Of a stretch of DNA of 17,637 bases, positions 12,150-17,637 are shown in pieces. The DNA is from a virus (taxonomy: Duplodnaviria; Heunggongvirae; Uroviricota; Caudoviricetes): IMG/VR virus record IMGVR_UViG_2579778784_000009; one strand, 5' to 3'. Every line of letters begins with the position of its first letter. Within the stretch, counting starts at the first letter, position 1. The notes below the pieces were generated by a model. That model was not told the origin of the DNA. It did not search any database and saw nothing but the letters and a program-made list of their open reading frames with translations. A program made the translations under genes and the position numbers.

Positions 12150-12508
12150 ATACCTACAGCATCACATTACCCTGGCCTCCGAGCAATAATCGCTATTACC
12201 GCCATAATCGCGGGCGCACGCACGTCAGCGCAGAGGGGCAGGCATACCGCGATAACGTCGCCCGAATCATTAAAAACGCAATGCTGGATATCGGCCTGGC
12301 TATGCCTGTGAAAATCCGCATTGAGTGCCACATGCCGGATCGCCGTCGCCGTGACCTGGATAATCTGCAAAAAGCCGCTTTTGACGCACTCACTAAAGCA
12401 GGTTTCTGGCTGGATGATGCTCAGGTCGTTGATTACCGCGTTGTGAAGATGCCTGTTACCAAAGGTGGGAGGCTGGAACTGACCATCACCGAAATGGGGA
12501 ATGAATGA
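12146..12508 (+). CDS. rusA: Holliday-junction resolvase RusA
   Basis: 120 aa; [37 protein letters not shown]... matches E. coli RusA by recall. Confidence 0.9.
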
Positions 12509-12645
12509 TGTTTGAGTTTAATATGGCAGAACTTCTTCGCCACCGCTGGGGGCGTCTGCGCTTATATCGTTTCCCCGGTTCTGTTTTGACCGATTACCGA
12601 ATACTGAAGAATTACGCCAAAACCCTGACAGGAACAGGAGTATGA
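12505..12645 (+). CDS. ylcG: YlcG-like small protein (46 aa)
   Basis: Sub-threshold ORF, ATG overlapping the rusA stop (ATGATG). Sits at the DLP12 ylcG position between rusA and Q. Confidence 0.45.
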
Positions 12646-12730
12646 AGTCAGAGATAACAATCAACTAATACTGTTTTGTTGATTTTTGCTTGTAATTGGC
12701 GTTCTGGTCTGATTTTTGTGGAGTAAGTTG

Positions 12731-13114
12731 ATGCGTGATATTCAGATGGTTCTTGAGCGTTGGGGTGCGTGGGCGGCTAATAATCATGAAGATGTGACCT
12801 GGTCGTCCATTGCCGCCGGTTTTAAGGGATTAATTCCTTCAAAAGTAAAATCTCGCCCGCAATGTTGTGACGATGACGCGATGATCATTTGCGGGTGCAT
12901 GGCCCGTCTGAAAAAGAACAACAGCGATTTACACGATTTATTAGTAGATTATTATGTATGTGGTATGACATTCATGTCACTGGCAAGTAAGCATTGCTGC
13001 TCGGATGGTTATATCGGGAAAAGGTTACAGAAGGCTGAGGGCATAATTGAAGGGATGTTAATGGCATTAGATATCCGGTTAGATATGGATATCGTTGCTA
13101 ATAATTCTAATTGA
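12731..13114 (+). CDS. Q: Late-gene antiterminator Q (QuuD / phage 82-21 type)
   Basis: From ATG 12731 with [41 protein letters not shown]... recalled as DLP12 QuuD. Confidence 0.85.
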
Positions 13115-13251
13115 TATGCAATTGTTTACTAAAAGTTATTAAAAATGGGGCGTGGAAACGCCCCCAAAATAAAGGGTAATATATAACAGAAGGTTTATAT
13201 AGTAAGAAGCAAGGTAGTGCTTCTAAAGGAAGTGGCTTGAGGGCTCCACTT

Positions 13252-13291
13252 ATATGTTGCGGAGGCAAAGCCTCCCGCAACATATCTTTTT
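13252..13291 (+). terminator. Intrinsic terminator downstream of Q (tR'-like)
   Basis: Long hairpin ATATGTTGCGGAGG-CAAAG-CCTCCCGCAACATAT followed by CTTTTTC. Preceded by two smaller hairpins at 13148-13165 and 13207-13224. Confidence 0.6.
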
Positions 13292-13302
13292 CGTAAGTCA
13301 GA

Positions 13303-14385
13303 TTAGAACTGATAAACCAGACCTACAGCGACGATGTCGTCGGTATCAATACCAGCTGTTTTGGTAAACTTACTATCGTCAATTAAGTTGATTTTGTAAT
13401 CAACAAAAGTGGACATGTTTTTATTAAAGTAGTAAGTAGCACCGACATCGACATACTTGACTAAGTCTCGGTCACCATGAACACCAAGGTCTTTACCTTT
13501 TGACTGAAGGTAAGCAACAGATGGACGCAGACCGAAGTCAAACTGATATTGTGCTACTGCTTCAAAGTTTTGTGCTTTGTTTGCAATATGGTTATTACCA
13601 AAAACGGTCATATTCTGAGTTTCAGAATATGTGGTAGCCAGATAGATATTGTTCGCATCATATTTCAGGCCTGCAGCCCATACTTCCGCATTTTTGCCGG
13701 AGGCATTGAATTTGCTCTTACCATAGGCGACCTGACCGTCAGTGCGATCTGATTTAGCATAGGTTGCACCCACGCCGAATCCTTCATACTCATAAGTAGT
13801 GGAGAAACCGAAACCATCACCATTGGCTTCAGTTACGTCAGTGCGGTCATTTTTACCCTGATACTGAGCAGCAAAGTTCAGGCCATCGACCAGACCAAAG
13901 AAGTCGTTGTTACGATAAGTTGCAACACCAGTAGTGCGACCAGTCATGAACACATCTGTTTGGGTCCAGGTATCACCACCGAATTCTGGCAGAACGTCAG
14001 TCCACGCACCGATGTCGTATGCTACACCGTAGTTACGGCCGTAATCGATTGAGCCGTAATCACCAAATTTCAGGCCTGCAAATGCAAGACGGGTTTTGTC
14101 TTTGGAAGAACCTTGAGATTCAGCACGGTTGCCTTTGAATTCATATTCCCACTGACCGAAACCAGTCAGTTGATCGTTGATTTGGGTTTCACCTTTGAAG
14201 CCAAGACGGGCATAAGTAGTATCACCATCATCTGCATCATTAGAGGAGAAGTAGTGCTTGGCATTAACTTTCCCGTATAGATCCAGCTTGTTACTGTCTT
14301 TATTATAAATTTCAGCTGCCTGAGCAGACATCGCCATCAGTACTGATGCAGCTACAGCAGAAATTGCCACTGTTAATTTTTTCAT
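13303..14385 (-). CDS. nmpC: OmpC-family porin, NmpC/Lc type (phage-borne)
   Basis: Signal peptide [23 protein letters not shown], then [16 protein letters not shown]...VGLVYQF, a classic general porin. The track ORF has a spurious 20-aa N-terminal extension. Confidence 0.9.
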
Positions 14386-14811
14386 TGTACGCCCTTTTTT
14401 TGAACTATTATTAAAAAATGATGTCACTGCGCGATAAATATTCATCTAATCAATGTGATTATTTCAAGATGTAAGTTTTAGTTTCTCATTTAATTTGTGA
14501 AGTAGATCTCTATTTTTATCGGAACCTTTTCTATCTAATCCTATTCATGGCTCTTGTCTGAACAAAAATAAATCTATTAGCTAATTTATATTAATGGCAC
14601 TTATTTATAAGTGCTCTATAATTCTTTAGCTTAATTTAAACAAACTAAAAATAACATCGGAAATTATTAACTGGTTATTTGTTGAAGTTTTCTTATGCAT
14701 TTGTGGTGGTGTTTTGAACACTCGGTGGCATTCTCACAAATATCATTTAGTAGTTTACGTACGTAAAAAATTGGTTATGCTGTTAAGAGTGGTTACTTCG
14801 TCACACAGCTT

Positions 14812-14845
14812 AAACCCGCCGTCGAGCGGGTTTTTCCATTTTTTG
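14812..14845 (+). terminator. Intrinsic terminator upstream of the lysis genes
   Basis: AAACCCGC-CGTCGA-GCGGGTTT hairpin followed by TTTTTCCATTTTTTG, about 130 bp before the holin start. Confidence 0.6.
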
Positions 14846-14973
14846 AGTCTCGATATTAGCTGATAACCCAATACCTGAGTTATTCACTGACTCCGAATCT
14901 GTTACGTTTCTGCCTTTATTGCGATACGTAGTATCCCCTTAATTTACACCCGCTTTGTCTGCGAGGTGGGGTT

Positions 14974-15188
14974 ATGAAATCCATGGATAAGTTAACAACG
15001 GGTGTCGCCTATGGTACCTCAGCAGGTAGTGCCGGGTACTGGTTTTTACAGTTGCTCGATAAAGTCACGCCCTCACAGTGGGCGGCAATAGGTGTGCTGG
15101 GTAGCCTGGTATTTGGCCTGCTGACGTACCTGACAAACCTTTATTTCAAGATTAAAGAAGATAAGCGCAAGGCTGCGAGAGGTGAATA

Positions 15189-15189
<1 letters not shown>
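14974..15189 (+). CDS. S: Class II holin/antiholin, phage 21 S type (dual-start)
   Basis: 71 aa, MKSMDK dual-start motif, GAGGTGGGG RBS. Matches S21 by recall. Stop overlaps the endolysin ATG. Confidence 0.9.

Positions 15190-17637
<2,448 letters not shown>

Follow-up and report, generated by a model that had tools for sequence, protein, structure and literature searches.

Predicted late promoter beyond a reverse-oriented NmpC/Lc-type porin gene in a DLP12/PA-2-type lambdoid prophage

Homology to mapped late promoters indicates that the late promoter pR' and its qut site most likely lie between the porin gene and the holin gene S, at about 14754-14800, and that the late terminator tR' is most likely the hairpin and T-run at 14812-14844. 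Positions refer to the window, i.e. the whole 17,637-nucleotide stretch of viral DNA that was analyzed (IMG/VR record IMGVR_UViG_2579778784_000009). Taken as a whole, an arrangement in which the late promoter stands beyond the porin, the porin cassette is insulated and tR' occupies 14812-14844 is considered quite probable. The window would then carry a late-control region of the kind standard in DLP12/PA-2-type lambdoid prophages, with a porin moron sitting between the Q gene and the promoter that Q targets.

The sequence-only reading had placed an NmpC/Lc-type porin gene antisense between Q and S, and the gene content confirms this placement. The Q antiterminator gene (12731-13114, plus strand, QuuD/Q933W type, 127 aa) matches PF06530 (E 7.7e-54). 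Its product is 96% identical to QuuD of K-12 DLP12 and 81% identical, over 120 aa, to Q of the Stx2 phage VT2-Sakai, and it matches the solved Q21 structure (chains 6P18/6JNX) distantly (E 4e-8). For DLP12 Q, antitermination at a cognate qut site has been reported. The holin S gene (14974-15189, plus strand, P21 type with the dual start MKSM; PF04971, E 2e-35) is annotated as essD in RefSeq. It is followed by the SAR endolysin (lysozyme) gene R (15189-15587, plus strand, PF00959), which is truncated by an IS21-family insertion: rrrD is marked partial in RefSeq and istB and istA come next. A reverse-oriented porin between Q and holin S was found in 2,322 of 5,426 complete E. coli genomes as well as in K-12 DLP12. 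As the NmpC/Lc porin cassette of DLP12/PA-2-type lambdoid prophages, the locus has long been known.

The porin gene (13303-14385, minus strand) encodes a general porin of 360 aa with a 23-aa signal peptide. Its product covers the Porin_1 profile (PF00267) over its full length (positions 1-337 of 337, E 2.2e-151) and is 91% identical to Lc of phage PA-2 over the whole length; the first 23 residues are those of the annotated Lc signal peptide and the C-terminus is LVYQF, with a C-terminal Phe. The mechanically called ORF spans 13303-14445, while the real start is the ATG at 14385, annotated so both in phage PA-2 and in RefSeq (WP_000737271.1 of strain ECONIH2, whose coordinates are identical to those of the window porin). 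A putative CRP-type site (TGTGAagtagaTCTCT, 14496-14511, no strand assigned) is located in a region of 25-30% GC upstream of the porin; it is annotated in PA-2 (J02580), and its position in the window was derived from the alignment offset. One candidate porin promoter (TTGAAA-18-GAATAT, minus strand, 14467-14438) scored only 8/12, was not flagged by the promoter scan and was not relied on. The porin cassette (about 13137-14750) would form a self-contained leftward transcription unit, composed of the AT-rich CRP-type upstream region, the ORF, a structured 3' UTR (IpeX) and its own terminator at 13164-13137. The homologues PA-2 Lc and DLP12 NmpC are expressed in the lysogen and replace host porins; Lc acts in lysogenic conversion, in which OmpC, the receptor of PA-2, is lost. 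The lysogenic-conversion role that had been ascribed to porins of this type is thus the established role of these two proteins; outer-membrane expression is documented only for PA-2 lysogens and nmpC revertants, and by analogy with these homologues the present porin would be expressed in its lysogen.

The structured segment that follows Q is, as judged from its sequence, the porin 3' UTR (13137-13302, minus strand), equivalent to the IpeX sRNA of DLP12/PA-2. It comprises five stem-loops and ends in an intrinsic terminator of the porin/IpeX transcript (13137-13164, minus strand), detected by the terminator scan and made of the hairpin 13164-13147 followed by AUUUUUAAUA (T-run ATTTTTAATA). This third terminator was absent from the sequence-only reading. 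It folds at -13.8 kcal/mol and varies between haplotypes almost only in its loop; the complete 3' UTR folds on the minus strand at -53.6 kcal/mol (z -5.8). Between the porin stop at 13303 and the minus-strand terminator, the IpeX equivalent measures about 166 nt as compared to a reported 167 nt. When the spacer between Q and the porin stop was aligned with those of K-12 DLP12, PA-2 and 434B, the mean column identity was 93% and the differences fell mostly in loops. Among strand-informative variants in local stems, scored on about 19 closely related haplotypes, 4 events favored the minus strand as against 1 for the plus strand, which is a weak signal. In all phage records where the segment was found (36/36), it was accompanied by the porin. 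An Rfam search at gathering thresholds, and another over 12700-15200 with permissive E-values, matched no known RNA family; Rfam contains no model for IpeX or for the late leader. In the literature, IpeX of DLP12/PA-2 is said to lower OmpC/OmpF expression.

As had been proposed, two hairpins followed by T-runs do flank the porin on the plus strand, at 13252-13297 and 14812-14844. Four terminator-like sites were found against 2.6 +/- 1.6 in shuffles, which is not above chance, so that the reality of the terminators rests on conservation and not on number. The first hairpin (13252-13291) has 15 pairs and one bulge, folds at -21.9 kcal/mol (z -5.9) and is followed by CTTTTTCG on the plus strand; it was missed by the consensus terminator scan because of the bulge. 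Together with its T5 run, present on the plus strand only, it extends to 13297 and constitutes the first stem-loop of the porin 3' UTR as well as a possible plus-strand terminator for Q transcripts. The T5 run is shortened to T4A in roughly one third of related loci and therefore the latter role is uncertain. The hairpin belongs to IpeX and would at most stop transcripts leaving Q, without being tR'.

The only homologue of a late promoter mapped for this type of Q was found beyond the porin, at 14754-14788. The segment 14751-14835 is 78% identical to the late promoter, qut and terminator segment of VT2-Sakai, and the same cassette reaches up to 96% identity with other Stx phages over shorter stretches. 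When aligned to the annotated Sakai promoter, the predicted pR' (14754-14781, plus strand) consists of a -35 hexamer TTTACG (14754-59), a palindrome TTTACGTACGTAAA (14754-67), which is a candidate Q-binding element, and a -10 hexamer TATGCT (14776-81). These hexamers are weak (8/12) and were not flagged by the consensus scan. They are followed by a conserved start region GTTAAGAGTGGTTAC and the leader (14782-14811, plus strand). In Sakai, the PR' start has been mapped by dRNA-seq and Term-seq, with 258 nt from PR' to tR' and an RNase E GU|AUU site at +173. These reported distances are compatible with no start other than the A of GTTAAG[A]GTGG, and the homologous base of the window, A14788, is the predicted transcription start. 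It is located 186 nt upstream of S, and the -35 hexamer lies 1,640 nt past the Q stop. The 15-mer GTTAAGAGTGGTTAC is present in a single copy in the window (14782-14796) and also once per related locus. As a candidate sigma-dependent pause element, the block AGTGGTTAC at +1 to +9 offers a best -10-like hexamer of 2-3/6 here and of 4/6 (TACATT) in Sakai; its constancy is uninformative because the block is part of the search motif.

Counted from the predicted late start, the second plus-strand hairpin and its T-run occupy +25 to +57. Its stem (14812-14833, AAACCCGC/GCGGGTTT) folds at -12 kcal/mol and is followed by TTCCATTTTTT up to 14844, 129 nt ahead of the S start codon; this intrinsic terminator was flagged by the scan. 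Of 62 distinct related leaders, 52 have a hairpin with a T-run in this position, built from about 20 different stem sequences, as compared to 14% in shuffles. The PA-2-like haplotype has a mismatch in this stem. In Sakai, the homologous hairpin and U-run are contained within the 258-nt StxS precursor and therefore do not impose a complete stop there. Which of the two plus-strand terminators is tR', and where pR'/qut lies, had been left open; homology now assigns tR' to 14812-14844 and pR'/qut to the segment just before it.

These assignments do not support the earlier claim that the porin must be traversed in antisense by Q-dependent late transcription. No copy of the 15-mer was detected between Q and the porin, even with 3 mismatches allowed, and the plus-strand promoter scan of 13115-13300 returned no site. 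While the identities of the genes, the cassette's homology and distance from Q, and the folds were shown here, we infer the start site in this phage, the binding of Q to the palindrome, the efficiencies of the terminators and porin expression in the lysogen, and the following sequence of events is proposed. Q, the product of the early rightward transcript, would act through the cytoplasm; because it is a diffusible protein, a late promoter adjacent to the Q gene is a feature of the textbook examples and not a mechanistic requirement. Transcripts initiated at pR' near 14788 would stop at tR' when Q is absent. Q would load on RNA polymerase at pR', probably via the spacer palindrome, and the polymerase would then pass tR' into S, R and the structural genes. 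Since late transcription would start beyond the porin, it would never cross it. Among rightward transcripts, only the early one encoding Q would point into the porin, and it may be stopped by the hairpin and T5 run at 13252-13297 when it is not antiterminated.

In order to evaluate how this organization is distributed, 120 IMG/VR viral contigs carrying the 15-mer were surveyed. A PF06530 Q was found upstream on the same strand in 93 of them. The gap between Q and the motif was 4-45 nt in 16 of these 93 contigs and 0.6-3 kb in the rest, and the long gaps were filled overwhelmingly by minus-strand ORFs, including a porin in 37. A displaced cassette with intervening cargo is also found in the annotated phages SfII, Stx2a_1447 and Stx1_14040. 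The block formed by the -35, the palindrome and the -10 travels with the motif and not with Q. The class of the palindrome agreed with the clade of Q in every one of the 64 dereplicated Q/cassette pairs counted, which are those with one of the three main palindrome classes (27/27, 13/13 and 24/24), whether the cassette was adjacent or displaced; this agreement could partly reflect linkage rather than function.

Three other explanations were weighed against a late promoter beyond the porin. The classical lambda order would place pR'/qut directly after Q (13115-13250) and make 13252-13297 the tR', so that Q-modified polymerase would read through the antisense porin and the second terminator at 14812-14844 to reach S. 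The strong plus-strand hairpin and T5 run, 138-183 nt past the Q stop, do resemble the lambda pR'-tR' distance. Phage ev066 is also in line with this order: its Q is 88% identical, the cassette is absent, and another promoter-like site and a terminator stand right after Q and are followed by a reverse gene. We had expected ev066 to carry the cassette after its reverse gene; this was not borne out and counts against the late promoter beyond the porin, and the layout of ev066 shows that this Q clade does include a case of the textbook order with a moron in antisense. In the window, however, 13115-13300 has neither a plus-strand promoter-like site nor a copy of the start motif, and the segment is unlike any late-promoter cassette and is tied to the porin in the 36 phage records. 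Moreover, it corresponds to the porin 3' UTR, in which base changes mostly keep minus-strand pairing, the T-run of its plus-strand hairpin is not conserved, and the palindrome cognate to this Q clade is found at 14754-14767. A promoter directly after Q is hence regarded as very improbable for this phage. Antisense transcription of the porin could instead come from the early rightward operon: during induction, antiterminated Q transcripts would pass 13297 and silence the porin and IpeX near the time of lysis, while 13252-13297 would block them in the lysogen. This would supplement, and not replace, a late promoter beyond the porin. Q and the porin gene converge, with about 160 nt of overlap between their predicted 3' ends (plus-strand stop at 13297, minus-strand stop at 13137), and the T-run is on the plus side only; on the other hand, this run reads T4A in about a third of related loci and the hairpin is well enough explained as part of IpeX. 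We consider such a supplement possible, although not the likelier case.

The DLP12 literature suggests a different Q-responsive promoter. A primer (Pdlp12Fw) and the "-121 to +650" numbering put the +1 of the DLP12 lysis operon at window position 14434 (PMC7918800), directly after a sigma-E-like motif read from the sequence (GAACT-N17-TCACT, 14401-14434, plus strand). If this sigma-E-type promoter, divergent from the porin, were the one that responds to Q, 14754-14844 would only be a downstream terminator or leader to be passed by its transcripts. A review of that work names Q, RpoE and Hha as regulators of the operon, and in the DLP12 literature the promoter region through which Q controls the lysis operon is taken to be the DNA upstream of essD; a +1 at 14434 is likewise beyond the porin ORF. 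This position, attributed to sigma-E in the DLP12 papers, is 354 nt upstream of 14788 and conflicts with a sigma-70 pR' as the sole Q-responsive promoter. However, the Q proteins that have been studied (lambda, 82 and 21) load at a sigma-70-dependent promoter-proximal pause beside the binding element, and the mapped PR' served by the 81%-identical Sakai Q corresponds to 14788 and not to 14434. In addition, 14401-14434 belongs to the porin cassette and is missing in phages with other cargo, whereas the late cassette is present in all. The sigma-E-type promoter is therefore an unlikely target of Q.

The window can be compared with related systems. K-12 DLP12 (quuD - nmpC - essD/rrrD/rzpD) has the same gene order and orientation as the window, with the cassette motif present once, 173 nt upstream of essD; in the window, the stretch from tR' to S is 17 bases longer. 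An IS5 element interrupts nmpC in K-12, where the lysis genes are intact; in the window it is the endolysin gene that is interrupted, by the IS21-family element, and the porin gene is whole. In PA-2 (lc, GenBank J02580), the porin has the same location with respect to Q and the lysis genes as in the window, and its 3' UTR and CRP-type sites are shared; differences are seen in the external-loop regions of the porin and in the tR' stem, where PA-2 has the mismatch. In Sp5/VT2-Sakai and 933W (Q - PR' - StxS - tR' - tRNAs - stx2), the cassette made of promoter, palindrome, start motif and first hairpin is homologous to that of the window. The Sakai cassette overlaps the 3' end of Q while that of the window is displaced from it, and a second terminator at +258, which defines StxS in Sakai, has no counterpart before S. 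The Sakai cargo (tRNAs, stx) is forward and downstream of PR' and therefore Q-dependent, whereas the cargo of the window is reverse, upstream of pR' and Q-independent. Phage 21 (Q21, QBE, SDPE and tR'; 6P18/6JNX) shares the Pfam family of Q, the location of the QBE in the spacer, a short leader and the types of holin and SAR endolysin; its terminator, at +3 to +50, is also within about 50 nt of the start. Its Q is only about 30% identical, its pR' directly follows Q, and its QBE is a direct repeat (ATTGAGCA/AATGAGCA) where the conserved element of the window is a palindrome.

Placed in this way, the porin gene is insulated from late transcription, which fits expression in the lysogen, unlike the Q-dependent stx. 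For this Q family, adjacency of the late promoter to Q cannot be taken for granted, and predictions of late-induced prophage cargo should be anchored on the cassette (GTTAAGAGTGGTTAC and the terminator) and not on the Q gene. For the present locus, this mainly corrects an annotation-level reading. Tentatively, and with clearly less confidence than for the position of the late promoter, the interval between a PF06530-type Q and its late promoter could be a general slot for reverse, lysogen-expressed cargo, the spacer palindrome could coevolve with Q as a Q-binding element, unlike the direct repeat of Q21, and the overlap of the Q and IpeX 3' ends could switch off conversion at induction; we regard this joint reading as rather doubtful. 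Cargo seen in the slot includes porins and defence-like genes (KAP NTPase, NYN, ATPase+Dcm). The sequence GTTTAC...TAAAAAT (13124-13146), at the left junction of the porin insertion, was considered as a promoter remnant but dropped, being too short and AT-rich. A clearer partial copy of the cassette motif is found at the Q stop in Stx2a_1447.

The window, 17.6 kb in length, comprises the left and middle portions of a lambdoid prophage inserted beside icd. Read from left to right, it encodes an integrase, recombination functions, a repressor, replication functions and the nin-region genes ybcN, ninE, ybcO, rusA and ylcG, followed by the antiterminator gene Q (12731-13114, plus strand, PF06530), a reverse porin gene, the P21-type holin gene S (start 14974) and the endolysin gene R. 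The porin gene (13303-14385, minus strand) encodes a full-length PF00267 protein, which has the signal peptide of phage PA-2 Lc and shares 91% identity with that porin. This bears out the NmpC/Lc-type porin that the sequence-only reading had placed in reverse between Q and S, and plus-strand hairpins followed by T-runs are indeed present on both sides of it (13252-13291 and 14812-14844). Such a position of the porin has long been known. The cryptic prophage DLP12 of K-12 has the same order (quuD-nmpC-essD), and nmpC was reportedly located in the defective qsr' prophage by Highton et al. in 1985. The lc arrangement in PA-2 is recorded in GenBank J02580, and the classic PA-2 lc record extends over the Q-porin spacer. 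Several E. coli chromosomes (e.g. ECONIH2) match the region 12500-15600 at 100% identity. Of 5,426 complete E. coli genomes, 2,322 carry at least 80% of it, as do 36 phage records, phage 434B among them; the spacer 13100-13310 never occurs without the porin in phage records (36/36). The finding is already known, given the publications on the porin position, on IpeX (the sRNA from the porin 3' UTR of DLP12/PA-2), on the control of the DLP12 lysis operon by Q and on PR' in Q933-type phages. The remaining interest is general and reaches beyond the window: a slot for reverse-oriented cargo that separates Q from the late promoter pR', and a clade-specific palindrome. Overall, the described features were confirmed and their interpretation was supported in part.

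The DNA between the porin gene and S was used as a query against phage genomes, and 14751-14835 aligned with several hundred Stx phages. In VT2-Sakai, whose Q is 81% identical to that of the window, the counterpart lies directly after Q and is annotated as a putative late promoter, Q-utilisation site (qut) and terminator. The PR' start and the 3' end at tR', the Q-responsive terminator, have been mapped in the Sakai phage by dRNA-seq and Term-seq, 258 nt apart, and RNase E cuts the PR' transcript between GU and AUU at +173 (PMC7547250). Only one solution on the Sakai sequence is compatible with the 258 nt, this cleavage motif and +173: transcription starts at the bracketed A in GTTAAG[A]GTGG, which follows the annotated -10 TATCAT by seven bases, and the transcript ends in the T-run belonging to the second of the annotated terminators. 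By homology, the late transcript of the window is predicted to start at A14788 on the plus strand, with the pR' -35 TTTACG at 14754-14759, the -10 TATGCT at 14776-14781 and tR' at +25 to +57 (hairpin 14812-14833, then a T-rich run as far as 14844). The fully annotated phage 21, whose Q belongs to the same Pfam family and has a solved structure, follows the same plan: -35, Q-binding element in the spacer, -10, start, pause element and terminator at +3 to +50. The explanation as a whole, in which pR'/qut would lie at about 14754-14800 and tR' at 14812-14844, is highly probable on these sequence comparisons. It answers which of the two terminators is tR' and where pR'/qut lies; 13252-13291 belongs instead to the porin 3' UTR.

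The idea that Q-dependent transcription must run antisense through the porin gene was not upheld. The homologous pR' (14754-14788) is beyond the porin, and between Q and the porin we found neither a promoter-like site nor a copy, with up to three mismatches, of the 15-mer start motif GTTAAGAGTGGTTAC (14782-14796), which is single-copy in the window and in each related locus examined. Q-dependent late transcription would begin past the porin and head away from it, Q reaching pR'/qut across 1.64 kb; this distance is unproblematic because Q is a diffusible protein. A Q-responsive start at 14434 competes with 14788. According to a later paper on the DLP12 work (PMC7918800), the lysis operon is under Q, RpoE and Hha control, and its promoter fragment is numbered -121 to +650; placed from the primer sequence, the DLP12 +1 falls at window 14434, directly past a sigma-E-like GAACT-N17-TCACT (14401-14434, plus strand). 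However, the mapped Sakai start corresponds to 14788, Q proteins need a sigma-70-dependent promoter-proximal pause, and 14401-14434 is part of the porin cassette, missing in relatives that carry other cargo. We favour 14788; a Q-dependent start beyond the porin stands either way, because 14434 also lies beyond the porin ORF. A second plus-strand promoter-like site (14594-14622, ATGGCA-17-TATAAT, 10/12 match) shares with 14401-14434 a region of 25-30% GC upstream of the porin.

An IMG/VR scan for the 15-mer returned 120 contigs, and in 93 of them a PF06530 Q lies upstream of the motif in the same orientation. The Q stop is 4-45 nt from the motif in 16 of these 93 loci and 0.6-3 kb away in the remainder, where the gap contents are overwhelmingly minus-strand ORFs. 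A porin occupies 37 gaps; other fillers (in loci L019, L020, L022, L037, L055, L117, L118 and others) are KAP NTPase, NYN, AAA_15/21 ATPase with cytosine methylase, and NA37-like genes, as well as several ORFs without a Pfam match. The slot resembles a hotspot for defence genes and morons. The cassette (the conserved block from -35 to terminator) is displaced in this way also in the annotated phages SfII, Stx2a_1447 and Stx1_14040, with the stx genes coming after it in the last two. In Stx2a_1447 (L008 855-875), GTTTAAGAGTGCTAAC, a 12/15 match to the start motif, contains the Q stop codon; the reverse cargo therefore sits between partial direct repeats of the motif, a hint of recombination at this sequence. 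Among 62 distinct leaders, 52 are still followed by a hairpin and T-run, using about 20 different stems, versus 14% of shuffled sequences. At the position of window 14826-14832, in the 3' arm of tR', GAGCTGG replaces GAGCGGG in a common haplotype (L016, L028, L104 and PA-2, L005); the loss of a G-C pair should make tR' weaker. Compared with K-12 DLP12, 17 extra bases, CTGCCTTTATTGCGATA, are found at 14899-14915 between tR' and S.

The -35/-10 block moves together with the start motif and holds a short palindrome followed by an A-run (14754-14767). Its sequence varies by Q clade yet remains palindromic, the variants at this position and upstream of the 15-mer in loci L016-L135 being TTTACGTACGTAAA, ACGCGTACGC, GCGCGGTCCGC, GGAATTCC and ATTCGTTACGAAT. 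After dereplication, palindrome class matched Q clade in 27/27 pairs for TTTACRnnCGTAAA (Q933/DLP12-like Q), 13/13 for YGCGTACGCA and 24/24 for GCGGKCCGCA, independently of cargo between Q and the cassette. The palindrome is a candidate Q-binding element; such clade tracking is as expected of one, and linkage could contribute. In phage 21 the Q-binding element is a direct repeat, whereas the cassette of the window has a palindrome.

In Sakai the homologous hairpin with U7 (L003 864-890) looks canonical. It occupies +27 to +55 of the transcript from the mapped PR' and falls within the 258-nt precursor of StxS. It is evidently an incomplete stop that polymerase passes at least part of the time; the StxS paper (PMC7547250) does not mention it. 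Phage Lambda_ev066 (L006 2878-3010, L015) has a Q of the same clade, 88% identical to that of the window, without the conserved cassette. Its Q is directly followed by a promoter-like site of another kind, a terminator similar to Sakai tR' and then a reverse lipocalin (Blc) gene, so that late transcription would cross a reverse moron. The order Q, promoter, terminator, reverse gene thus fits some phages of this Q clade without fitting the window.

Read on the minus strand, the segment after Q (13302-13137) forms five stem-loops with a fold of -53.6 kcal/mol (z -5.8); an intrinsic terminator, made up of hairpin 13164-13147 and then AUUUUUAAUA, is the final one. The whole segment is 93% identical to its counterparts in DLP12, PA-2 and 434B, with differences mostly in loops, and contains an IpeX equivalent of about 166 nt. 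According to reviews, IpeX is a 167-nt RNA of DLP12/PA-2 produced within the porin transcript, which reduces OmpC and also OmpF. Strand-informative changes in local stems (G-U versus A-C) give four events for the minus strand and one for the plus strand, a weak but consistent indication of minus-strand origin. The 13252-13291 element is the first stem-loop of the porin 3' UTR. Read on the plus strand, it is a strong hairpin (-21.9 kcal/mol, z -5.9) followed by CTTTTTCG; this T-run exists on the plus strand only. Whether it also stops transcripts leaving Q is evenly balanced, because the T-run is T4A in roughly a third of related loci. Terminator-like sites are not above chance by count (4 versus 2.6 +/- 1.6), and the case therefore rests on comparison with other genomes.

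An IS100/IS21-family element (istB, istA; 15588-17637), which extends to the window end, truncates R behind codon 133, and given this cut the prophage should be unable to lyse its present host. The istB of this element contains a perfect 191-nt tandem duplication (15683-15873 and 15875-16065, spacing 192); the junction introduces a TAG, which leaves an IstB of only 248 aa. In ECONIH2 the segment is present once, in contrast to the two copies in the window. When the junction was searched in the 5,426 complete E. coli genomes, all of the best matches listed were in two pieces, as a single copy predicts. The duplication may be specific to the strain or an artefact of assembly.
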